Below, one piece after another: positions 20,784 through 37,452 of a stretch of DNA of 64,000 nt. The stretch is from Deferrisomatales bacterium (GTDB taxonomy: Bacteria > Desulfobacterota > Deferrisomatia > Deferrisomatales > JACRMM01). The first letter of the stretch is position 1, and each line of letters opens with the position of its first letter. Location of the stretch: the NCBI GenBank assembly GCA_033551855.1, contig JAWSUI010000001.1, positions 128,001 through 192,000 of the forward strand. Reading direction: 5' to 3'. A model generated the notes under the pieces. The model was not told where the DNA came from and ran no database searches. It worked only from the letters and a program-made list of their open reading frames with translations. The position numbers and the translations under genes were made by a program.

Positions 20784-21197
20784 TCAGCGCCGGCGACCGC
20801 CCACCTGGAGCTGGTTCATCGCCCGCTCCATCTTGGCTTCGGCCTCCAAATACTCCTTTGCCTCCCGGGAGTAGGTCTGCAGCTCCTTCTCGGCCTCGGC
20901 CTTCAATGCTTCGGCCGCTTGAATGTCAATCTCTGCGGGGAACTCGGCCTCCTCGGCCAGCACGGTCACCTTCGCGTGCTGGATCTCGGCGAAACCGCGG
21001 CGGACCGCGAGAAAGTGCTCCTCGGAGCCGATCCGGTACATCAGCTCCCCCACCCCGAGGGCGGTGAAGAACGGCGTGTGCCCGCTCAACACACCGAACT
21101 CCCCCTCGGCGCCCGGGGCGGTGATCTCGGAGACCTCGTCCGCCACGAGCTGCCGGTACGGGGTGACGACCTCCAGGCGAAACGTGTCCTTTGCCAT
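20784..21197 (-). CDS. atpC: ATP synthase F1 epsilon
   Basis: LEVVTP and GEFGVLSGHTP. Confidence 0.95.
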   Translation of the reverse strand: MAKDTFRLEVVTPYRQLVADEVSEITAPGAEGEFGVLSGHTPFFTALGVGELMYRIGSEEHFLAVRRGFAEIQHAKVTVLAEEAEFPAEIDIQAAEALKAEAEKELQTYSREAKEYLEAEAKMERAMNQLQVGGRRR

Positions 21198-21213: not shown

Positions 21214-23623
<2,410 letters not shown>

Positions 23624-23639: not shown

Positions 23640-25151
<1,512 letters not shown>

Positions 25152-25158
25152 GGTGGTC

Positions 25159-25701
25159 TCACCCCTTGATCAGAGTTTCTCTCATGCGTTCGAGTTGGGT
25201 GCGCAGGCTGCCGTCGAAGACGAGGTTGCCCACGCGGGCCACCACCCCGCCCAGGAGGGACGGGTCGACGTGGAGCTCGAGCTCCACGTCCTTGCTCAAC
25301 GCCTTGGCAAGCGCTTGGCGCAAGGCCAACACCTGGTGGTCGTGCAGCGGCATCGGCGTGGCGGCTTGTCCGCGCACGCGGCCATCGGCCTCATCGCGCA
25401 TGGCGGAGAAGGCGCGGAGCACGTCACCGAGCTGAGGGAGCTGACGCGCCCCCAGGAGAACCCGGAGGAAGTTGGCGGCCAGCCGATCGAAGGACGCGGA
25501 CGCCAGGACGGCCTCGAGGACCTCGGCCTTGGCCGGGCGGGGCAGGATCGGGCTGAGGAGCGCCGTGCGGAGGTCCTCCTGGGAAGACAGGGCCTCCTGC
25601 ACGCTCGCCAGTTGGTCGGCCACCTCGGCCGTCTTGCCCGCCTCCTGGGCCAGCTCGAAGAGCGCCTTGGCGTAGCGCTGGGCGATTCGCGACCGGATCA
25701 A
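25159..25701 (-). CDS. atpH: ATP synthase F1 delta
   Basis: TTG start overlapping the atpF stop; [10 protein letters not shown] and [12 protein letters not shown]. Confidence 0.92.
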
Positions 25702-26267
25702 TGGACCCTCCCGATGTTCTGGATGGTGAGCTCCACCGCCTTCTTCTGGTCTTCCGCCGTGTAGGCCTTGGCCAGGAGCTGCTCCGCCAACTGCACGGAG
25801 AGGGTGGCAACCTCGGTCCGGAGCTCGTCGGTCGCCCGCTTGAGCTCGTGGGCGGCAGCCGACTCCACCTGCCGTCGGATGGACTCGGCGGCCTTCTCGG
25901 CGTCGGCCACGAGGCGGCCGCGCTGGCGCTCCCCCTCGGCCTGGAAGTCTGCGTGAATGGTCCGAATCTCTGCCTGCAGGTCCGCGACGCGGGCCTTGTA
26001 CTCCTGGTAGCGGGCCTCGGCGGCATCCCGCGCCTGGAGGGCTTCCTCCAGCTCCTTCTTGATCGAGTCGCGACGCTGGGCCAGGGCCTGGGTTATGGGC
26101 TTGCGCAGGAAGTAGTACAGCAGGCCCAGGAGGATGCCGAAGTTGACGAACTTCATCGTCAGGTCGTACAGGGGTGGGCGGCCGGTTCCTTCGGCAGCGG
26201 CCCACAGGACGGCAGGGGCGAGGAGCGCCCCGAGGGTCAGGAGCAGTGTCAAGGCGCGACGGCCCAT
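25698..26267 (-). CDS. atpF: ATP synthase Fo subunit b
   Basis: VNFGILLGLLYYFLRKP followed by a coiled coil. Confidence 0.9.
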   Translation of the reverse strand: MGRRALTLLLTLGALLAPAVLWAAAEGTGRPPLYDLTMKFVNFGILLGLLYYFLRKPITQALAQRRDSIKKELEEALQARDAAEARYQEYKARVADLQAEIRTIHADFQAEGERQRGRLVADAEKAAESIRRQVESAAAHELKRATDELRTEVATLSVQLAEQLLAKAYTAEDQKKAVELTIQNIGRVH

Positions 26268-26692
26268 CAGACGGCCCTCCCGAGGATGCGTTGGGCGATG
26301 GATTCGGCGACCTGCCCGGCTTGGGCTCGGAGGGACCGCCGCGCCTCCTCTGCCTCGCCGCGCAAGCGGGCTCGGACCTGGGCCACGGCCTTGTCCGCCT
26401 CAGCGGTGGCCGCGGCCAGCAGACGGTCCCTCTCGGTCTCGCCCTGGCGGACGAGCTGGGTGCGGGACCGGTCGGCATCGGCCTTGGCAGCGTGAATGCG
26501 CTTCTGGTAATCGTCCCAGATGGCCTGGGCTTCGCTCTCGAGCTGTGCCGCCTTCGTCCGGCGCCCCTCGGTTCGCTCCCTCCGTTCCTCGAGGACCCGC
26601 AGCATGGGCCGGAAGAGGATGCGGTTCAGGAGGTACATGAGGAGCAGGAAGTTGACGAGCTGGACGACCAGGGTGGCATTGATGTTGATCAC
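26267..26692 (-). CDS. ATP synthase Fo subunit b'
   Basis: INATLVVQLVNFLLLMYLLNRILFRP followed by a coiled coil. Confidence 0.9.
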   Translation of the reverse strand: MININATLVVQLVNFLLLMYLLNRILFRPMLRVLEERRERTEGRRTKAAQLESEAQAIWDDYQKRIHAAKADADRSRTQLVRQGETERDRLLAAATAEADKAVAQVRARLRGEAEEARRSLRAQAGQVAESIAQRILGRAV

Positions 26693-26794: not shown

Positions 26795-27049
26795 TCAGAC
26801 CACGAAGATCAGGAGCAGGGCAATCACGAGGGAGTAGATCCCCGTGGATTCGGACACGGCTTGCCCTACGAGCATCGTGCGGGTGAGCAGGTTGGCGTGC
26901 TCGGGGGCTCGGGCGATCCCTTCGCAGGCCTTGCCGGCCGCGAAGCCTTCGCCGATACCGGGGCCTATGGCGCCGAAGCCCATGGCGATGCCTGCGCCCA
27001 ACAGGGCGGCGGCGCGGATGACGTCGGGTCCGCTGATCTCTGGGGTCAT
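26795..27049 (-). CDS. atpE: ATP synthase Fo subunit c, single hairpin, Na+-binding signature
   Basis: ATG 27049 with RBS ggagg; GPGIGEG..ARAPE..GQAVSESTGIY. Confidence 0.95.
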   Translation of the reverse strand: MTPEISGPDVIRAAALLGAGIAMGFGAIGPGIGEGFAAGKACEGIARAPEHANLLTRTMLVGQAVSESTGIYSLVIALLLIFVV

Positions 27050-27077: not shown

Positions 27078-28064
27078 TCAAACGACGTATAGAAGTAGAA
27101 GGGCGACGAGAAGCCCGTAGACGGCGGTGGACTGGCTGACGGCCTGGCCAACGAGCATGGTGCGCACCAGGACTGGCGAGAGGTCCGGGCGACGGCCGAT
27201 GGCACGGCAGGCGGCGGCGGCGGCCGAACCGGAACCGATCCCGGGGCCCGTGGCGGCGAGGCCGGCCGAGATCCCGGCACCGAGCAGGGCTGCAACCGCC
27301 GCCAGGCTGCCGGCGCCCGCATCTCCCGGGTGGGCGAAGACGAGCAGAAAAGCGACGAGCAGTCCGAAGATCGACGGCGTCTGGGCCACGGCCTGTCCCA
27401 TCAGCATAGCACGCAGCAGGGAGGCGTAGCCCGCCGGGCGGCGGGCTATGGCGTGGCAGGCGGCGGCGGCGGTCATCCCGGAGCCGAGGCCGGGCCCAAC
27501 GGCCGAGACGCCGGCCGAGATGGCTGCCGCCGCCAGGGCGGAAGCGGCGCTCGAGAGGGAGCCTGCCGCTTCGAGAGGGACGGCGAAGAGCAAGAGAAAG
27601 GCCATGACGAGGGCAAAGATGGCCGGGGTCTGGGCCACGGCTTGCCCCACGAGCATGGCGGTGGTGACGCGGCCCGCGGCCTGGGGGTGGCGGGCGATGC
27701 CCTTGCAGGCCGCAGCGCCGGCGAGGCCGGCCCCCAGGCCCGGGCCCAGTGCCCCGACGCCCATGCACAGGCCGGCGGCCCCCAGGGCGGCGGCTTGGAG
27801 GAGGCTGGGGACCGGCCGGGCGGTGAACAGGAGCAGCACCGCCACGACGAGGGCGAAGATGCTGGCGGACTCCGCCACGGCCTGGCCCACCAGCATGGTG
27901 CGCTGCACCCTGTGGGCGACGGCCGGCTGCCGCGCGATGGCCGCTGCCGCCGCTTCGGCGGTGCGGCCTTCGCCGATCGCGGCGCCGATGGCCCCCAGAC
28001 CGATGCACAGGCCGGCACCCAACACCGCCGCCGCCTGGGTCCACGCAGCAGGGTCCACGCTCAC
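27078..28064 (-). CDS. Fused four-hairpin ATP synthase c subunit (about 8 TM)
   Basis: Four tandem c repeats ending GQAVAESASIF, GQAVAQTPAIF, GQAVAQTPSIF and GQAVSQSTAVY, with loops ARQP, ARHP, ARRP and GRRP. Confidence 0.92.
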   Translation of the reverse strand: MSVDPAAWTQAAAVLGAGLCIGLGAIGAAIGEGRTAEAAAAAIARQPAVAHRVQRTMLVGQAVAESASIFALVVAVLLLFTARPVPSLLQAAALGAAGLCMGVGALGPGLGAGLAGAAACKGIARHPQAAGRVTTAMLVGQAVAQTPAIFALVMAFLLLFAVPLEAAGSLSSAASALAAAAISAGVSAVGPGLGSGMTAAAACHAIARRPAGYASLLRAMLMGQAVAQTPSIFGLLVAFLLVFAHPGDAGAGSLAAVAALLGAGISAGLAATGPGIGSGSAAAAACRAIGRRPDLSPVLVRTMLVGQAVSQSTAVYGLLVALLLLYVV

Positions 28065-28735
28065 TCCTGGAGGGCCACGGAAATGTATGTGAGGGTGAGC
28101 ATCGCGAAGACGAAGGCCTGCACGGTGCCCACGAAGAGGCCAAAGAACGCGCTGAGCAGGGGCGGGAAGATGAGGTGGTGGACGAGGTGGCTCACGACGA
28201 GGATGATGATCGAGCCCCCCATCACGTTCCCGTAGAGGCGAAAAGACATGGAGACGACCTTCGCCGCTTCACCAATCACGTTGAGAGGGAACATGAAGAA
28301 GAACGGCTGAAAGTACTCTTTGAGGTAGGCGCGCCAGCCCTTGGCCTTTACCGCCGCCGCTTGAGCTGTCAGGAAGGCGATTAGAGCCAGGATCAAGGTG
28401 GTGTTGAGGTCCTTTGTGGGTTCTTGCAGGAACGGGATCATCCCCAGCCAGTTGGAAATCAGGATGAAGATGAACAGGGTCAGGACCAACGGGTAGTAAC
28501 GGGGACCCCGTTTGCCGAGGGTTTCCCGGACCAGGTCCCGGAAGCCCCCGACCACGACTTCGGCCAAACTCTGGAGGGCCCCGGGCACCAGGGTGGGGCG
28601 GCGCGAGACCGCCATCCCGAGGGCGACGAGCACGGCCATGACGACCCAGGACATCAGGAGGGTGGTCGCGTTCAAGACGACGTCGCGACCGGCGAAGGGA
28701 AGAACCCAGTGGGGGATGTGGGTGATGGCTTCCAT
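28061..28735 (-). CDS. atpB: ATP synthase Fo subunit a
   Basis: PTKDLNTT, SFRLYGN (essential Arg) and VQAFVFAML. Confidence 0.95.
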   Translation of the reverse strand: MEAITHIPHWVLPFAGRDVVLNATTLLMSWVVMAVLVALGMAVSRRPTLVPGALQSLAEVVVGGFRDLVRETLGKRGPRYYPLVLTLFIFILISNWLGMIPFLQEPTKDLNTTLILALIAFLTAQAAAVKAKGWRAYLKEYFQPFFFMFPLNVIGEAAKVVSMSFRLYGNVMGGSIIILVVSHLVHHLIFPPLLSAFFGLFVGTVQAFVFAMLTLTYISVALQE

Positions 28736-28757
28736 GGCCGGACCCTCGGAGGGAGGC

Positions 28758-29141
28758 TCAATCGCCCCCGCAGGGGCCCAGAAGGCTGCCCGCGAGGAGA
28801 ACGGCGGGCCCCGCGAAGAGGCCGAGTGCGGCGGACCCGAGGGAAACCCCGGGGAGGGCGTAAGCGGCTCCCAGGGCGCCGGCCCGCAGGCCGGTTCGCA
28901 GGAGCGACCCCAATCGGGCGCGCCGGCCGGCCAGGCGCGGGGGCGCCGTGACGTGGCGGGCGATCTGCGTTCCGAGCAGATGCACAGCCGCTGCGCTCGC
29001 GAGGCTCCCGAGCAAGAAGCCCTTGGCCTCCGGCGATCCACCGAGCAAGCCCAGCAGAGCGGCACCGCCCAGTCCGAGGAGCCCCGCCCCGGCAGCGGCT
29101 CCGAGACGAAACCGGCGGAAGACATCGACGGTGGAAGTCAC
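28758..29141 (-). CDS. atpI: ATP synthase subunit I-like membrane protein
   Basis: Four hydrophobic segments between atpZ and atpB; GTG overlaps the upstream stop. Confidence 0.6.
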   Translation of the reverse strand: MTSTVDVFRRFRLGAAAGAGLLGLGGAALLGLLGGSPEAKGFLLGSLASAAAVHLLGTQIARHVTAPPRLAGRRARLGSLLRTGLRAGALGAAYALPGVSLGSAALGLFAGPAVLLAGSLLGPCGGD

Positions 29142-29410
29142 CGTTGCCTCCTCTCGGCCCGGCGCCCCGTCTCGGTGACGATCCGGTAGACAGCCCAGAA
29201 GCCGGAAAGGGCCCCCAGGGGAATGAAGAGGGCTTTCCAGAGCCCCCGGTGCCCGGTCCACTGGTCGAGGTAGTACCCCAAGGCAAAGCCGATGCCCACC
29301 GCGGCGACCATCGTCAGGCCCAAATGCGTGAGGAGGCCGAGGTGCTCCATGAGGTCCTTCATCTCCTTGGGATTGAAGTTCCTCTTGCGTGTCGGCTGGT
29401 TAGGTACCAT
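29138..29410 (-). CDS. AtpZ/AtpI family protein
   Basis: LGLTMVAAVGIGFALGYYLD..two TM; start uncertain. Confidence 0.85.
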   Translation of the reverse strand: MVPNQPTRKRNFNPKEMKDLMEHLGLLTHLGLTMVAAVGIGFALGYYLDQWTGHRGLWKALFIPLGALSGFWAVYRIVTETGRRAERRQR

Positions 29411-29754: not shown

Positions 29755-30612
29755 TCAGCGGCCGGATGCCTCGAGGAGGGACAGGAGGCGATCCAAGTCG
29801 TCCAGACTGCGGTAGTCGATGCGGATGCTGCCGGCCCCCTTCTTCTTGGCCGGCTGCACGGACACCCGGGTGCCCAGTCGGCGGCCGAGGCGGTCCTCGA
29901 GCGCTCGTACGTTGGGGTCCTTCGGCGGTGCGGGGGCAGGTCCCGCCGCAGGCCTTCGCGCGAGGGCCTCCGCCTCCCGCACGGACAGACCGCGGCGGAG
30001 GACCTGGCGGAGCAACTCGAGTCGGGCCGCGTCTCCGGTGACGGTGAGAAGGGCGCGGGCGTGGCCGGCGGAGAGGGTGCCGTCGCGCAGGGCCTGGAGC
30101 GCCTCCTCCGGCAGCCCCAGCAGCCGCAAGGCGTTTGCAACGGCGGCCCGGGACTTCCCGATTCGGGCGGCGAGGGCCTCCTGGGAGAGCCGGGCTCGGT
30201 CGAGAAGCAGTCGGTAAGCCTGGGCCTCCTCTACAGGATTGAGGTCCTCGCGCTGGAGGTTCTCCACCAAGGCCATTTCAAGGACTTCGTCTTCGTCGGC
30301 CTGGCGCACGATCGCAGGAACCTCGGTCAGCCCGGCGCGCTGGGCGGCTCGCCAGCGGCGCTCGCCCGCGATGAGCTCGTAGGCGCCGGACGCGGACCGT
30401 CGCAAGATCACGGGTTGGATGAGCCCCTTCTCGCGAATCGACTGCGCGAGCTCCTCGAGCGTCCCGTCCGGAAAGTGCTGGCGGGGTTGGTGGGGGCTCG
30501 GGTGAATCTCCTCCACGGGGCAGAGGAAGAACTCTCCTTCCAGGCGGTCGGGGAGCAGGGCGTCGAGCCCCGAGCCGAGGGCAGGGCGGGGGCGTTTCGC
30601 GGTCTGAGCCAT
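29755..30612 (-). CDS. parB: Chromosome partitioning protein ParB
   Basis: [19 protein letters not shown] and ENLQREDL. Confidence 0.96.
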
Positions 30613-30635
30613 GGGGGTCCTCTGGGGGCGCCGCC

Positions 30636-31421
30636 CTAAGCGGCGACGGGGGGCTGTGGGGCCGCCGGCCGGATCAGCTCCCTGGCCATGCGCAGGTAGC
30701 CCTGGGCCCCGCTGGAGCGGATGTCGTACAGGAGGGCCGGCTTCCCGTGGCTCGGCGACTCACTCAGGCGCACGTTGCGGGGGATGACCGAGCGGAAGAC
30801 CTTGTCCTTGAAGTGGCGCTTGACCTCGTCGGCCACTTGGTGGCTGAGGTTGTTTCGGGGATCGAACATGGTGAGCAGAATCCCCTCGATCTCCAGCCGG
30901 GGGTTGAAGCCGCGCTTGACCGTCCGGACCGTGTGGAGGAGCTGGGAGAGCCCCTCGAGGGCATAGTATTCGCACTGGAGGGGGATGATGACGGCGTCGG
31001 ATGCCACCAGGGCATTGATGGTGAGCAGACCAAGGCTCGGGGGGCAGTCCACCAGGATGTAATCGTACTCTTGTCGAACGGGCGCGAGGGCCTCCCGGAG
31101 ACGGAACTCCCTCCGATTCGCGGTGACGAGCTCGACCTCCGCCCCGGACAGGTCGCGGGAGGCCGGCACCAGGAACAAGTGGCCCAAGGCGGTGGAGCGG
31201 GTCGCGGAGGCTGCGGGAGCCTGCCCCGTCAGGACGTGGTAGGAGGTGAGCTCCCCGGGCCCTGCCCGCTGTCCCAGCCCGCTGGTCGCATTGGACTGGG
31301 GGTCCGCGTCGAAGAGGAGCACCCTCTTCTCCGCAGCGGCGAGGGACGCGGCGAGGTTCACGGCGGTGGTGGTCTTGCCGACGCCGCCCTTCTGGTTGGC
31401 CAACGAGAGAATGCGAGCCAT
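30636..31421 (-). CDS. parA: Chromosome partitioning ATPase ParA/Soj
   Basis: NQKGGVGKTT, DCPPSL and PRNVRLSE. Confidence 0.96.
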   Translation of the reverse strand: MARILSLANQKGGVGKTTTAVNLAASLAAAEKRVLLFDADPQSNATSGLGQRAGPGELTSYHVLTGQAPAASATRSTALGHLFLVPASRDLSGAEVELVTANRREFRLREALAPVRQEYDYILVDCPPSLGLLTINALVASDAVIIPLQCEYYALEGLSQLLHTVRTVKRGFNPRLEIEGILLTMFDPRNNLSHQVADEVKRHFKDKVFRSVIPRNVRLSESPSHGKPALLYDIRSSGAQGYLRMARELIRPAAPQPPVAA

Positions 31422-31556
31422 GGACACCTCCCAACGCGGGACGTTACCACAGGGCCGGCGAGGAGGGAACGGGCTTGCGCGAACCTGTGGCGGGCGGTCC
31501 CCACGGGGTTGTGCGGGGGGGGCGGGACGCGCGCAGGAACCCGGTTCGTGCCGCGG

Positions 31557-31572
31557 TGTTTCACGTGAAACA
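31557..31572. promoter_or_regulatory. parS site
   Basis: Perfect TGTTTCACGTGAAACA. Confidence 0.92.
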
Positions 31573-31585
31573 GCCCCGGGGGGGC

Positions 31586-32206
31586 TCAGTCGATCCTCCG
31601 ATATACTTGCAGTCGTCGGGGCCCGGCGCCGGGGGGGGGTGGGTACTCCAGATCCTCCACCGAGCTCCAGCCGATAGGCGGCTCCGCGGGGCCGGACCCC
31701 AGGAGCAGGAAGACGTCGCCCGAGGGAGCGAGGAAAGGGCGCGCGGACTTCAGCAGGGAGTGTGGGGCGGCCAAGGCCCTGGCGGTGACGGACGCAAAGC
31801 TCCCGGCCAGCTCGGGCTGTTCCCGAAGGGCTTCTTCGTGACGGGACTGCACCACACGGACCCGGCCGAGGCCCAGGACCCGGACCGCGTGGCGCAGGAA
31901 GCTCGCGCGCTTGCCCAGGGGCTCCAGGCAGACCACCACGGCGCCGGGCCACGCCAGAGCGATGGGGAGGGCCGGAAGGCCGGCGCCGCTGCCGATGTCC
32001 AGGAGGGGAAAGCGCGGGGGGACGAGCAGGAACGGGAGCACCGCGTCCGCGATCTGGAGGCGGATGCCGGGCAGATCTCTCGGCCCCACCAGCCGCACGG
32101 AGCGGTTCCAGCGCTCGAGCTCACGGGCATAGGTCTCGAAGCGCTCCCAGGGGAGGGCTGCCCGAAGGTCCGGGCGTAGGAGGCGGTCCCACTCCCCCGG
32201 GGTCAC
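31586..32206 (-). CDS. rsmG: 16S rRNA m7G527 methyltransferase
   Basis: [20 protein letters not shown] and VTARA; GTG overlaps the mnmG stop. Confidence 0.9.
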
Positions 32207-34077
32207 GGGAACTGCCCGTTCTTCCGGAGGTGCACGAGCAGCGAGGTCACCGCAGCGGGCCTCATGCCCGGCAGGCGTTGGGCCTGACCGAGGGTGAGGG
32301 GCCGGGCGGAGGCCAGCAGGTCGCGAACCTCCGGGGGCAGCCCGGCCACGGCTCCGTAGTCGAGATCCGGGGCCAAGGGGGTGGTCTCGAGGCGGGCGGT
32401 CGCCCGGAGGCGCTCTTCGTCCCTCCGAACGTACCCTTCGTACTTCACATCGATCTCCACCGTTTCCTCGTCGCGAGGCGTCGCCTCGGGCCACCCGGTG
32501 GCCAGGGGCTTGAGCTGGGCCAGGGAGATCTCGGGCCGGCGCAGGAGCTCCTCGAGGGACGCGGGTTGTTTGGGAAACCGGGTGCCGGCTTCTCGAAAGA
32601 GCTCGACGGCCTGCGGAGTAGGCGCGGCGCGGGTAGAGGCCAGGAAGGCGCGGAGCTCCCCAAGGACGCGTTGCCGCTTGCGAAAACGTGCGGCCCGGTC
32701 CGGCGTGACGCTCCCCAGCTCCACGGCCAGCGGAGTCAAGCGCAGGTCGGCGTTGTCCTCCCGAAGGACGAGGCGGTACTCTGCGCGACTCGTGAACATG
32801 CGGTACGGCTCGGTGATGCCCCGGGTCACGAGGTCGTCCACCAGCACCCCCAGGTACCCCTGATGTCGCCCCAAGACCACTCCCCCCCTGCCTGCGGCGC
32901 GCCGGGCCGCATTGACCCCGGCCAAGAGGCCCTGGGCGGCGGCCTCCTCGTACCCCGACGTGCCGTTGATCTGCCCGGCGAGGAAGAGCCCCTGGAGGCG
33001 CTTGGACTCCAACGTGGGATAGAGTTCGGTCGGGTCCGAGTAGTCGTACTCGACCGCGTAGCCGGGCCTCAGAAGCTCTGCCTCCTCGAGGCCGGGTATG
33101 GATCGCACGAAGTGCAGCTGGACATCGAGGGGCAGACTCGTGGAGATGCCGTTGGGATACACCTCCCGCGTGTCCTCCCCTTCCGGCTCGAGAAAGATCT
33201 GGTGGCGCTCCTTGTCGGGGAAGCGCACCACCTTGTCTTCGATGCTCGGGCAGTAGCGGGGCCCGATTCCCTGGATCACACCGGTGTAGAGCGGGGAGCG
33301 GTCCAGGGCCGAACGAATGATCGCGTGGGTCTCGGGTGTCGTGTAGGTGACGTGGCAGGGATGCTGTGGACGGCGAAACGCGACGGTATCCACCGAAAAG
33401 GGGGTCGGGTCCGGGTCGCCGGCTTGCGGCTCGAGGCCGCGCCAGCGGAGGCTGTTCCCGTTGAGCCGCGGTGGAGTGCCTGTCTTGAGCCGCCCCAGGG
33501 GAAACCCCCGCCTTCGGAGATCCTCCGCCAGGGCGCGGGAAGGGGGCTCGCCGGCCCGCCCCGCGGGAAACCGGCTGAGACCGATGTGCACGAGCCCGTT
33601 CAGGAACGTGCCGGGGCACAGCACCACGGCCGCCGCCCGGAGGAAAGTGCCGGCCCGAGTCTCCAGGCCGGCCAGGCGGGTCCCTTCGAGACGGAGGCCG
33701 ATCACTTCCCCCTGGTGCAGGGTCAGGCCCCGAAAGGACTCGAGAACGGCCTTCATGTGCCGCCCGTATCGATAGCGGTCGGCTTGCGCCCGCGTCGCCC
33801 AGACCGCCGGGCCCTTGCGGGTGTTCAGGCGGCGAAGCTGCAGGGCGGTGGCGTCGGTCGCCCTTCCCATCTCGCCCCCAAGGGCGTCGATCTCACGAAC
33901 CAGGTGCCCCTTCCCGAGACCCCCCACCGCCGGGTTGCAGGACATCTGGCCGACGGCATCCAACTGCAGGGTCAGGAGGATCGTACGCGCGCCCAGTCGG
34001 GCCGCCGCTAGGGCGGCCTCGATGCCCGCGTGCCCGCCGCCGACCACCGCGACGTCGTAGGAAACAGGCCACTCCAT
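32203..34077 (-). CDS. mnmG: tRNA modification enzyme MnmG/GidA
   Basis: [22 protein letters not shown] and [12 protein letters not shown]. Confidence 0.97.
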
Positions 34078-34171
34078 GGGTCATCCCTTGGACAGCTGCG
34101 AAGGCCCCGAAGGGGGTGCCCGGCGTCGCGCCCAAGCCGAAATGCTGCCGGAGGCCCTCATCGGCTCGGGG

Positions 34172-34187
34172 TGTTTCACGTGAAACA
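34172..34187. promoter_or_regulatory. parS site
   Basis: Perfect TGTTTCACGTGAAACA. Confidence 0.92.
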
Positions 34188-34446
34188 CCCGGTATCCGTC
34201 GAAAGACGTCACGCCCCCCGACCACAACCGGGCACTGCCTACTGCTACAACGAGCGATCGGTTCTCCGCGTGCGTTCGGCGCGAAACCTTCCCTCCGGCG
34301 GTCAGGATCCCGGCGCGCAGTGCATCGCGAGACGGTTTCGAGCGGCCCTGCGGCCCTTCGGTGCGCCCAGTGCATCGTTCCAAGGCCGCCTTCGGGCTCT
34401 TCAGGAAGGCCCCGCGCCCGACTCTGACGCAACTCTCGCTGCAGCA

Positions 34447-35826
34447 CTACTTCCCGATGCAGAACTCGGAAAAGATGTCCTCCAGCACGTCCTCGGGCGT
34501 TCCCCACCCCAACAGCTCCGACAGGCACCGTCGCGCTTCGTGCATCTCGCTCGCCGCCACCTCGGGAAACCCTCCTCCTTCCAGGACCAGAAGAGCGCGC
34601 CGCAGGGCTGCCAGAGCTTGCTCCACGGCCCGTCGATGCCGCACACGGGTCAGCGGCGCGTCCCCTGCGCCGTCGCGCGGGCCGCTCCCGGCGGCTTCCC
34701 GAAGGTCCTGGAGCAGGGCGGGGATCCCCTCCCCGGTGAGGGCGGAGAGCACCAAGGGAGGCTCTCCGAGTACCGCAGCCAGCTGGGCGCAGGGCCGGGC
34801 CCCCAGGTCCGCCTTGTTCATCACCCCCCGAACCTGGTGTTGGTGCTGCAACCGCTCGGCCTCCTCGATCTCCTCGGGCCGCAGGTCGCGCGCCCCGTCG
34901 CAGACCAAGAGCACCAGATCCGCCCGGGCGGCGGCGGCACGCGCGCGGCGAACGCCTTCCTCTTCGAGGGGATCCCTGGCGGGGCGAAGCCCGGCGGTGT
35001 CCACCAGACGAATCGGGGTCCCCAACGCGTTGAGCCACGCCTCGATCGTGTCGCGCGTGGTCCCCGGAGTCGGGCTGACGATGGCGCGGTCTTCTTCGAG
35101 CAGGCGGTTGAGGAGGCTCGACTTGCCGGTGTTGGGGGCCCCGACGAGCGCCACCGTGTACCCGTCCCGAAGCGTACGCCCCCAGGAGTAGGTCGACAGC
35201 TTCCCCTCCATGGCTGCCACCACGGGGGTGAGGGCTTGGGCCGTATGCGTTTGGTCTAGATCTCCGAGATCGTCCTCGGGAAAGTCCAGGTGCGCCTCTA
35301 GTCGGGCAAGGCAGTGGCCGAGCGCCTGCTGCCACTGTTCCACGTCCCGGGACAGCGCGCCGCCGAGCAGTTCCTCGTGGACCTTCAGGGCAGCGTCCGT
35401 TCGCGCTCGGACGACGTCCAGAACCGCTTCGGCTTGAAGCAGGTCTACCCTGCCGCGCAGATACGCTCGCAAGGTGAACTCTCCGGGCTCCGCCAAGCGG
35501 GCGCCGGAGAAGAGAAGGGCGTCCAGGACGGCCGGGCCCGCGGGGCCGCCGTGGCACTGGATCTCCAGCACGTCTTCCCGGGTGTAGGAGGCCGGGCCGG
35601 GCATCCATAGGGAGAGGGCCTCGTCGAGAGGCCCGCCCCGGCGGGGATCCCACACCCGTGTCCACCGCACGGTCCAGGGTTCGAGTTGGAGGGCCTCCCC
35701 CCCGCGATCCCGGAGCACGGCCCTTCCCAGAGAGGCCGCCTCGGGGCCGCTGACTCGGACGACGCAGATTCCTCCCTCCCCCGGCGGGGTCGCGAGCGCA
35801 GCGATCGTGTCCTCCAACGAGCGCAC
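34447..35826 (-). CDS. mnmE: tRNA modification GTPase MnmE
   Basis: GAPNTGKSS, GTTRD, DTAG, NKAD and FCIGK. Confidence 0.97.
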   Translation of the reverse strand: MRSLEDTIAALATPPGEGGICVVRVSGPEAASLGRAVLRDRGGEALQLEPWTVRWTRVWDPRRGGPLDEALSLWMPGPASYTREDVLEIQCHGGPAGPAVLDALLFSGARLAEPGEFTLRAYLRGRVDLLQAEAVLDVVRARTDAALKVHEELLGGALSRDVEQWQQALGHCLARLEAHLDFPEDDLGDLDQTHTAQALTPVVAAMEGKLSTYSWGRTLRDGYTVALVGAPNTGKSSLLNRLLEEDRAIVSPTPGTTRDTIEAWLNALGTPIRLVDTAGLRPARDPLEEEGVRRARAAAARADLVLLVCDGARDLRPEEIEEAERLQHQHQVRGVMNKADLGARPCAQLAAVLGEPPLVLSALTGEGIPALLQDLREAAGSGPRDGAGDAPLTRVRHRRAVEQALAALRRALLVLEGGGFPEVAASEMHEARRCLSELLGWGTPEDVLEDIFSEFCIGK

Positions 35827-35862
35827 CGGATCCCCGAAAACGCTGCGGGACGCTGCCGCCCC

Positions 35863-37452
35863 CTACGCGGCAGCGGGCTCGGCCCTGCGCAGCATCCAGG
35901 CCTGCTGCGCGATGCTCAGCAGATTGTTCACGAGCCAGTAGATGACCAAGCCGGACGGGAAATTGAGGAACATGAAGGTAAACACCGCGGGCAGCCCGTA
36001 CATCATCATCTTCATCTGGGTTGGGTTGGTCCCGGTCATGGGAGTCAGCTTCTGCTGAAGCAACATGCTGGCTCCCATCACGATAGGCGTGATGTAGTAG
36101 GGGTCTTTGTCGGAAAGGTCTGTGATCCACAGAAAGAATGGAGCGTGACGCAGTTCTATGGATCCCAACAGGATTTTGTACAAAGCGAAGAAAAACGGGA
36201 TCTGGACCAACATCGGGAGGCAGCCCCCGAGCGGGTTGACCTTGTGGGTCTTGTAGAGCTGCATGACCTCCATGTTCATGCGCTCGCGGTCTTTTCCGTA
36301 TTTCTCCTTGAGGCGCTGCATTTTCGGCTGCAGATCCTTCATCCGCTGCATGGACTTAAAGCTTCGTGCGCTCAGGGGCCAGAAAACGGCCTTGATCACC
36401 GTAGTGAGAATGATGATCGCAATACCATAATTCCCGGTAACACCATAGATCGCGTTCAAGAAAACCATCAACGGCTTTGCAATCACATGGAAGAAGCCAT
36501 AGTGCGCCACGTGATCCAAGTTGGCCCCCAACGGGGCCAAGGCCGCCGGCAGCTTGGGGCCGAGGTAGATGCTGTAGGAAAACGTAGCCTCGGCACCCGG
36601 GTAGAGGTCGAACACGGGCCCCAGGAGCTCCACCTCGGCGACCTTGTCCTGCCCCAGGTGGGACCCGATCCGCAAGGAAGTACCCTCGGGCGACGACGGC
36701 ACCGCTGCCACCAAGAAGTACTTCTCCAGCAGGGCGGCCCAGGAGATGTTTGCCGGGGCCTGCACGCCGTCGCGGATCCGCTTGATCTTCACCTCCTCGA
36801 AGTCGCCCCCGCGATAGTAGGCGGGGCCCGTGAAGGAGTAGCTGTCCTCGAGGGGGGCAAAGTCCTGGACGAGCAACAAGCCGAGGCGGTCGCGAAGCGC
36901 CGCGCCCGCGCCGTTCCTCAGCCGGACGTCCACGTCCACGTCGTAGCGGCCGGGTGCGAGGGAGTATGTCTTCTCGATCCGGATCCCGGCGGGGGAGGTC
37001 CAAGAGTAGGTCACCCGGTCCGGGCGGTGTTCGACCTCCTCGTACACCTGGTTCCACTCCGGAATCGCCTCCAGCAGTCGCACTGCCCCGGCGAGGTCCG
37101 TCCCCGCCGGGGCGGCCAGAAGGCGCACGTCCGGGCTTTCCGGGGCAGGGGTCTCGCGGTATTCCTTGAGGCGAGCCTCTACGATGGCGGCGGATCGGCT
37201 CGAGAGACGAAGGGTCACCCGATCGTTCTCCAGCACGGCGTGGCGAACCGGCACCGCCGGTGTCGCCGGTACCTCCCCGGCGGGCGCTCCGGTCACCCAG
37301 GGGGCGGGGGGGGCAACCCCGGGCTCAACCGGAGAGGCAGCGGGCGGGGGAGCTCCGGGCCCCTGCGGAGGAGGGGGGGCAAGATACATCTGGAACAGCA
37401 AGAGAACGGCCATGGACAAGGCCACGGCCAGGATGGTTCGCTTCAGGTCCAT
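35863..37452 (-). CDS. yidC: Membrane protein insertase YidC
   Basis: [23 protein letters not shown] and GLVIYW. Confidence 0.96.

Follow-up and report, generated by a model that had tools for sequence, protein, structure and literature searches.

The four-hairpin c gene and its operon

A stretch of 64,000 nucleotides (nt) from the genome of a Deferrisomatales bacterium (contig JAWSUI010000001.1, positions 128,001 to 192,000 of assembly GCA_033551855.1), referred to below as the window, carries on its minus strand an F-type ATP synthase operon in which a gene for a candidate rotor subunit made of four fused c-subunit hairpins, named here c4, lies between atpB and a normal, single-hairpin atpE. 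The c4 frame is uninterrupted over 328 codons, and the Pfam ATP-synt_C profile (PF00137) matches its product in four stretches (E 1.5e-55; 185.7 bits, the cut-off being 24 bits). By its helical hairpins and its profile match, the protein belongs to this family. The carboxylate that each hairpin is expected to carry midway along its outer helix is present in hairpin 1 only (E65), and glutamine is found in hairpins 2 to 4 (Q145, Q228 and Q311). The residues of each hairpin (amino acids, aa, counted from the first GTG) are listed below for positions 32/65/66/67/70 of the Ilyobacter/Fusobacterium numbering, as placed by the hairpin alignment.

27078..28064, minus strand: c4, four-hairpin c subunit; 328 aa from GTG 28064; stop codon at 27078-27080
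27816..28064, minus strand: hairpin 1 (aa 1-83); GEG ... AESASIF; E/E/S/A/F
27576..27815, minus strand: hairpin 2 (aa 84-163); GAG ... AQTPAIF; A/Q/T/P/F; without carboxylate
27330..27575, minus strand: hairpin 3 (aa 164-245); GSG ... AQTPSIF; S/Q/T/P/F; without carboxylate
27081..27329, minus strand: hairpin 4 (aa 246-328); GSG ... SQSTAVY; S/Q/S/T/Y; without carboxylate

The sole carboxylates of hairpin 1 are thus Glu32 and Glu65, with Ala67 and Phe70 replacing Thr and Tyr, and hairpin 4 retains Ser66, Thr67 and Tyr70 (S312, T313 and Y316). A sequence-only reading of the window had described an intact 328-aa gene of this kind between atpB and a normal atpE, with both glutamates in hairpin 1 only, QTP in hairpins 2 and 3 and QSTAVY in hairpin 4; the open reading frame (ORF) check, the Pfam search and the hairpin alignment agree with that description. 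Translation likely starts at the second GTG (28058), which gives a protein of 326 aa: this codon has AGGAG 5 nt upstream and is also the start of an identical public record (P0003, 326 aa), and the first GTG (28064), six bases before it, overlaps the atpB stop codon. The hairpins of c4 are 43-53% identical to one another at the protein level and Tandem Repeats Finder detected no hairpin-length array in the DNA, which excludes an assembly artefact; the divergence of the repeats had already been taken, from the sequence-only reading, to make one unlikely.

The operon around c4 is complete and F-type throughout, with a PF00119 subunit a, b, b', an OSCP-family delta, alpha, gamma, beta and epsilon. 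Every neighbour of c4 belongs to F-type families, and the gene does not fall among the V/A-type proteolipids. The remaining genes of the operon, in the direction of transcription, are the following.

29138..29410, minus strand: atpZ-like small membrane protein, first gene of the operon (PF09527 ATPase_gene1, E 1.8e-13)
28758..29261, minus strand: AtpI-like protein, weak match, start uncertain (PF03899 ATP-synt_I, E 0.0012; 19.7 bits, below the 25.1-bit cut-off)
28061..28762, minus strand: atpB, Fo subunit a, directly upstream of c4 (PF00119, E 1.3e-51)
26795..27049, minus strand: atpE, normal single-hairpin c of 84 aa, downstream of c4 (PF00137)
26267..26692, minus strand: atpF' (b') (PF00430, E 5.1e-19)
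25698..26267, minus strand: atpF (b) (PF00430, E 2.1e-20)
25159..25701, minus strand: atpH (delta), start approximate (PF00213 OSCP, E 1.2e-46)
23640..25151, minus strand: atpA (alpha) (PF00006, PF00306, PF02874)
22760..23623, minus strand: atpG (gamma) (PF00231, E 4.1e-103)
21214..22626, minus strand: atpD (beta), the sole F-type beta of the genome according to a genome-wide beta search
20784..21197, minus strand: atpC (epsilon) (PF02823, PF00401)

The product of atpB retains its Arg in the motif SFRLYGN, and the AtpI-like gene occupies the position of atpI in the operon present in Acetobacterium woodii and in Clostridium aceticum. A gap of 28 nt, containing a GGAGG site for atpE, separates c4 from atpE, whose product has, by its residues (E32/E65/S66/T67/Y70), the full two-carboxylate Na+ motif of Fusobacterium nucleatum. 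Upstream of the atp operon (29755-37452, minus strand) lie genes which, from their translations, we take to be parB, parA, rsmG, mnmG, mnmE and yidC, a set typical of the replication-origin region.

Distribution and conservation of multi-hairpin c subunits

The c4 protein is one of a large family of F-type c subunits with 3 to 6 hairpins, strongly conserved and found mostly in Desulfobacterota, whose members go by the name 'ATP synthase F0 subunit C' in public databases. A word-indexed search, in which 8000 candidates were scored, gave 1834 proteins of 180-574 aa matching c4 at E<=1e-5, and 212 matches at E<=1e-30 came from searching 1.84 billion cluster representatives with a profile. Scanning one genome per species yielded 428 loci, the majority of them in Desulfobacterales and relatives, with Desulfatibacillum alkenivorans DSM 16219 and Desulfacinum infernum DSM 9756 as cultured carriers, at loci L012 and L079, respectively; the locus-level counts given below use 80 of these 428 loci. 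In an even sample of the phylum, a match at E<=1e-35 is carried by 41 of 401 genomes. According to PMC13343851, Desulfatiglandales carry two to four atpE copies.

Concerning the residue at position 65, the best 120 homologues are distributed among E-Q-Q-Q-Q (67), E-Q-Q-Q-Q-Q (25) and E-Q-Q-Q-E (16), followed by the rarer E-Q-Q-Q of the window (5), E-Q-Q-Q-Q-E (3), E-Q-Q-E (2) and other types (2). The closest relatives of the window's protein are P0004, P0005 and P0008, which are 74-81% identical to it. Within the window's order, the loci of ten relatives comprise seven three-hairpin E-Q-Q genes, two four-hairpin genes and one gene cut by a contig end, so that the number of hairpins varies between close relatives; in all nine complete loci the next gene encodes a single c reading E-E-S-T-Y.

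The gene order of the window is that of the family. At the family loci atpB lies directly upstream of the multi-hairpin gene, a single-hairpin ORF follows within 500 nt in 77 of the 80 loci (and after a longer gap in one more), and E-E-S-T-Y is the reading of all but one of the 80 single-hairpin ORFs present there (79). A search for four-domain proteins beside a single atpE, with conservation of the E/Q pattern and of the terminal STxxY, had been put forward with the sequence-only reading, and its outcome is in keeping with that reading: the family exists and both patterns are conserved.

Among 37 four-hairpin homologues, the invariant residues are E32, E65, S66 and F70 in hairpin 1, Q145, T146 and P147 in hairpin 2, Q228, T229 and F233 in hairpin 3, and Q311, S312, T313 and Y316 in hairpin 4, and the partner single c (30 partners) has invariant E34, E67, S68, T69 and Y72. 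The mean pairwise identities of hairpins 1 to 4 in the same 37 proteins are 0.62, 0.65, 0.67 and 0.67, respectively, the dead hairpins (those without Glu65) being as conserved as the live one. The ratio of nonsynonymous to synonymous substitution rates (dN/dS), also proposed earlier as a check, was calculated on other members of the family than the window's own gene: it ranges from 0.02 to 0.25, alike across the four hairpins, in the 15 lowest-dS of 25 pairs (dS 0.15-1.2). As judged from these sequence comparisons, the dead hairpins are under strong purifying selection.

In a hairpin tree, all 31 of the first hairpins from the Desulfobacterota family cluster in a single clade (support 0.97). 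In a tree of 150 hairpins, built on sequences of about 80 residues, hairpin 3 of the window's group stands apart from the other inner hairpins, its sister being a clade made up of last hairpins and single c subunits (support 0.82). A possible reading is that a three-hairpin ancestor gained a fourth hairpin independently in the window's lineage.

Longer c-subunit fusions were also observed among the cluster representatives, with 15, 12, 10, 9, 8 and 7 hairpins (P0147, P0271, P0150, P0211, P0226 and P0196; 1139 to 524 aa), which keep Glu65 and Tyr70 in nearly every hairpin. From their residues, these 7- to 15-hairpin fusions look like whole or half rings in a single chain.

Half-sites and covariation between successive hairpins

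In the c-ring of F. nucleatum, as described in PMC3692424, Na+ is bound by Glu32 and Glu65 of one subunit and by the oxygen of Val63 and Ser66 of its neighbour; Tyr70 and Ser66 form hydrogen bonds to Glu65, and Thr67 holds a water. A motif rule for double-hairpin c subunits, stated in bioRxiv 10.64898/2026.10.01.756066, requires the first hairpin to carry [STQ][STQ]xxY and the second to carry Glu. It follows from this rule that the Glu of hairpin i+1 pairs with the S-T-Y face of hairpin i.

The covariation of these half-sites was analysed in 200 multi-hairpin proteins (120 database matches and the ORFs of the 80 loci), which provide 746 internal junctions. When Tyr70 of hairpin i was set against Glu65 of hairpin i+1, both residues were present at 34 junctions, Tyr70 alone at 0, Glu65 alone at 7 and neither at 705. 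In other words, Tyr70 in an internal hairpin goes with Glu65 in the next one in 34 of 34 cases, and where Tyr70 is absent the next hairpin also lacks Glu65 in 705 of 712. At the ends of the proteins, Glu65 and Phe70 each occur in the first hairpin of 198 of the 200 sequences, and the last hairpin, which keeps S-T-x-x-Tyr, has Tyr70 in 199. Glu or Gln at position 32 is confined to hairpins with Glu65 (220 vs. 0).

The rule is obeyed in eight architectures, namely EQQ, EQQQ, EQQQQ, EQQQQQ, EQQE, EQQQE, EQEQ and EQEE. Some four-hairpin relatives have two or three live hairpins, such as L015 and L071 (E-Q-E-Q), L019 (E-Q-E-E), and L012, L035 and others (E-Q-Q-E), and position 70 follows the live hairpins in each case, E-Q-E-Q being accompanied by F-Y-F-Y, E-Q-E-E by F-Y-Y-Y and E-Q-Q-E by F-F-Y-Y.

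Structural models of c4 and of its complex with the normal c

The AlphaFold2 model of c4 consists of four hairpins of long helices, eight helices in total, with a predicted local distance difference test (pLDDT) of 94.8 and a predicted template modelling score (pTM) of 0.91. In this model the outer helix is interrupted precisely at Q145 in hairpin 2 and at Q228 in hairpin 3, in each case just ahead of the invariant Thr-Pro, and it is unbroken in hairpins 1 and 4. Using Foldseek, the best match is subunit c1 of the A. woodii ring (4bem_J, chain J of PDB entry 4BEM), with an E of 1.3e-6 and a template modelling (TM) score by target of 0.81, followed by two-hairpin V-type proteolipids with TM by target of 0.78-0.85. 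No solved chain in this search covers more than half of the c4 model, the TM by query being at most 0.46. The same A. woodii chain is the best solved match of c4 by sequence (E 4e-27).

A structure prediction of mixed rings had been suggested with the sequence-only reading, and a prediction was run on the c4-c pair. The interaction prediction score from aligned errors (ipSAE) of this complex is 0.64, vs. 0.00 for the best of three controls; the mark used is attained by 116 of 157 solved complexes and by 2 of 215 mismatched pairs. The runs share at least 98% of their contacts, the partner has a pLDDT of at least 84, and in every run the normal c is placed on hairpin 4 (residues 253-328). The modelled interface sets E34 and E67 of the normal c against residues 309-314 and Y316 of c4, which comprise S312, T313 and Y316, and the modelled orientation is the one predicted by the covariation. 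Because similar complexes (c-rings, 4BEM) are solved, the docking score may reflect memory of these structures; it indicates likeness and not binding.

Two membrane modules beside one F1 head

The genome of the window possesses three a-c sets: that of the window's operon, that of an N-ATPase operon and a stand-alone atpI-a-c module. The latter (contig C9:304-1875, locus L006) lies at a contig start with no F1 genes adjoining; its c subunit has 108 aa and reads Q32/E65/S66/L67/Y70, and its subunit a is 35% identical to that of the window. The N-ATPase operon, on contig C13 (locus L003, 1-3189), looks complete, with an AtpQ/Z-like protein, AtpR (PF12966, E 6e-29), a, c (93 aa, GEG ... IESTAIY), a long b and alpha. 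Two beta subunits are encoded in the genome, the window's and that of the N-ATPase (C13:15147-16517).

Eleven genomes were checked for the same arrangement, i.e. that of the window, five other carriers including both cultured strains, and five relatives from the window's order. In all eleven, a single F-type beta is accompanied by two F-type a genes, one of which lies beside a multi-hairpin c and the other beside an ordinary single c; the c of this ordinary module reads Q32/E65/S66/L67/Y70 in six of six cases. The position of the multi-hairpin module varies: in the window's order it directly precedes b' and b in the F1 operon, and in Desulfobacterales it is encoded away from the F1 genes. Across the phylum sample, two or more a genes are present in every one of the 41 carriers, vs. 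about 50 of the 360 non-carriers.

Of the two, it is therefore the stand-alone a-c module that is ordinary, the one with c4 being an addition. Given an ordinary stand-alone module and a single F1 head, the c4 rotor need not be the only rotor, and the gene content suggests that two different membrane motors could be built on one F1 head.

Comparison with known rotors

The closest known system is the hybrid rotor of A. woodii. Its c1 reads ETSGIF in hairpin 1 and QTTGIY in hairpin 2, which is the E..F then Q..Y order of c4, and both fused c genes belong to F-type operons, where they come directly after atpB and are followed by a single-hairpin c of the Na+ type. The order atpI-B-E1-E2, given in PMC7911925 for A. 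woodii and C. aceticum, is the gene order at c4. The A. woodii ring contains nine c2/3 to one c1. Its c1 has two hairpins and one dead interface, whereas c4 has four hairpins, eight helices and three consecutive dead interfaces. The inner hairpins of c4 carry the invariant Q-T-P, its live site has Glu32, and thus two carboxylates, where A. woodii c1 has Gln32, and its carriers also possess the second, ordinary a-c module. Relative to the hybrid rotor of A. woodii and C. aceticum, c4 is set apart by its four hairpins with three dead interfaces, the Q-T-P motif, Glu32 and the extra a-c module.

As for F. nucleatum, its c subunit has the residues of the window's normal c (E32, E65, S66, T67, Y70). 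This five-residue motif is split in c4, where E32 and E65 are on hairpin 1 and S66, T67 and Y70 on hairpin 4. The F. nucleatum ring is a homomeric c11 of single hairpins with 11 sites, unlike the hybrid proposed here. The c of N-ATPases (atpDCQRBEFAG) also has Glu32 and Glu65-S-T-x-x-Y, like the normal c of the window, but the N-ATPase is encoded apart, in an operon that includes AtpR, AtpQ, an alpha and a beta of its own and a c of one hairpin, and c4 is no part of it.

Fused hairpins and lost carboxylates are shared by c4 and the V/A-type proteolipids (Enterococcus hirae NtpK, the yeast and mammalian c), which belong to A/V-type enzymes. In two-hairpin V forms, live and dead positions alternate. 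We know of no V/A-type proteolipid with three consecutive dead positions. Archaeal c subunits with 1, 2, 3 or 13 hairpins are mentioned in PMC9171764, and F-type c subunits are described as 'predominantly' single hairpins in bioRxiv 10.64898/2026.10.01.756066. No F-type c subunit of more than two hairpins was found in the literature searched, a search which did not extend to the hybrid-rotor review and the A. woodii ring structure, where such genes may be listed.

The proposed hybrid rotor and its alternatives

On the strength of the gene and its architecture, its conservation, the covariation, the operon context and the gene counts, we consider it reasonably probable that c4 is built into the rotor (c-ring) of a Na+-coupled F1Fo ATP synthase, filling four neighbouring ring positions with one ion-carrying carboxylate. 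Each site would be formed between two hairpins, Glu32 and Glu65 coming from one and Ser66, Thr67 and Tyr70 from the preceding one. The Glu pair of hairpin 1 would then find its S-T-Y complement on the preceding subunit, hairpin 4 would offer its own S-T-Y face to the Glu pair of the following one, and the three inner interfaces (Gln65, no Glu32, Pro67/Phe70) would bind nothing. In this manner c4 would enter the ring between single-hairpin c subunits, as c1 does in A. woodii, and would extend the principle of c1 from two hairpins to four. The earlier inference that each end of the fusion keeps the half-site facing its neighbour, the inner interfaces being dead, is supported as far as the sequence logic goes, that is by the covariation, by the residue order of A. 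woodii c1 and by the docking on hairpin 4.

We further infer that such a hybrid ring would have three ion-less interfaces in a row and would move 3k fewer Na+ per turn, k being the number of c4 copies. The figures that follow are arithmetic on an assumed ring of 11 hairpins and 50 kJ/mol, the ring size not being given by the sequence. With one c4, such a ring would have 8 sites and a ratio of 2.67 Na+/ATP. One c4 per ring, or a larger ring, seems likelier than two copies in a ring of this size, because the latter would need about 311 mV. A lower Na+/ATP ratio is presented by authors working on hybrid rotors as an adaptation to low-energy life (PMC7911925).

Several observations weigh against the hybrid rotor. 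A first group concerns the half-sites: seven junctions violate the Tyr70/Glu65 rule, the sequences include close kin, so that the Fisher p of 3e-52 is overstated, and a four-hairpin 'EQED' lineage of 19 representatives departs from the rule, its position 70 reading L/I/F-F-F-Y. Ser/Thr66, being retained in all hairpins, does not discriminate live from dead sites, and the half-site edges of c4 would equally suit a ring of c4 alone. A second group concerns energetics. One c4 in the assumed ring lifts the synthesis threshold from about 141 to 194 mV, and the 311 mV of two copies is implausible for a synthase; three consecutive ion-less steps would yield no ion-driven torque, and a higher synthesis threshold would be odd for the sole F1 operon of an anaerobe. 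Among sequencing runs, no RNA run was listed as containing the stretch, the search giving a DNA run that may be its source and one run with a small share of it. Lastly, an N-ATPase might account for the second a gene of 30 among the 41 carriers in the phylum sample, and some of the extra a genes among the 50 or so non-carriers may likewise be N-ATPase genes.

The same architecture could have the opposite role, the c4 enzyme being mainly an ATP-driven Na+ pump which, as V-type ATPases do, would build a steep gradient from few ions per ATP and leave synthesis to the ordinary a-c module. We regard this as unlikely. Synthesis thresholds that climb with each c4 copy fit such a pump, as do an ion-less arc that is free of cost when F1 drives the rotor and the presence of a second, ordinary a-c module for the same F1; the loss of sites after duplication is also the textbook account of the passage from synthase to hydrolase, as given in PMC9171764. 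On the other hand, the c4 module shares, in the window's order, its gene cluster with the only F-type F1, and an N-ATPase operon, of the type to which Na+ export is ascribed (PMC2881411), is already present in the genome. An enzyme with a V-type c subunit synthesised ATP at low driving force according to PMC9171764, and the hybrid rotors of C. aceticum and A. woodii serve as synthases.

Separate homomeric rings of c4 and of c, e.g. three c4 forming 12 hairpins with 3 sites, would mean two kinds of rotor in place of a hybrid. Two copies of c4 could indeed complete a site between them, hairpin 4 of one giving the S-T-Y face and hairpin 1 of the other the Glu pair, but a ring of c4 only would carry 1 ion per ATP and its synthesis threshold would be about 500 mV. 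In 78 of the 80 loci the multi-hairpin gene has a single c after it, with E-E-S-T-Y in all but one of the single-hairpin ORFs (79 of 80). The occurrence of 3, 4, 5 and 6 hairpins in close relatives fits poorly with closure by multiples of one number, the docking model takes c on hairpin 4, and the A. woodii ring is mixed in a 9:1 ratio. This alternative is accordingly judged quite improbable.

A protein that is made and yet stands outside the working rotor, as an assembly template or as a membrane protein with another role, is held to be highly improbable, even though the dead hairpins have an invariant Q-T-P of their own, with a modelled helix break, which could serve another function. Both edge half-sites are exactly retained, the gene has the position of A. 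woodii c1 between atpB and atpE, the best structural match is a ring subunit, and strong purifying selection acts on all hairpins. As to a decaying tandem duplication or an assembly artefact, it can be dismissed in view of the intact frame, the 43-53% identity, the lack of a tandem array, the hundreds of orthologues and a dN/dS of 0.02-0.25 which includes the dead hairpins.

Returning to the hybrid rotor, a wider and more tentative proposal can be made for Desulfobacterota-type anaerobes, which we put forward as a possibility only. Their ATP synthase may have a two-level 'gearbox' on one F1 head: ordinary and Na+ a-c motors would be interchangeable, and within the Na+ motor a fused 3- to 6-hairpin c would insert into the ring an ion-less block, whose length (by evolution) and copy number (by expression) would set the Na+/ATP ratio well below known F-type values. 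If this were true, the rotor would coast for a quarter to half a turn without ion-driven torque, which would put models of torque generation to the test.

Significance

The ion/ATP ratio of F-type enzymes is usually read from the number of c subunits, and the A. woodii ring, with its one missing site, has been treated as a curiosity. The family described here makes an ion-less third or more of the ring possible in a widespread and conserved group of proteins, found in about a tenth of the phylum genomes sampled, cultured strains included. The second, ordinary a-c module beside one F1 head suggests that motors may be swapped. If the multi-hairpin proteins do sit in the ring, the family would offer a natural test of how a rotor crosses several carboxylate-free positions, and there may be errors in the bioenergetic yields currently assumed for many anaerobes that reduce sulfate, iron or sulfur.

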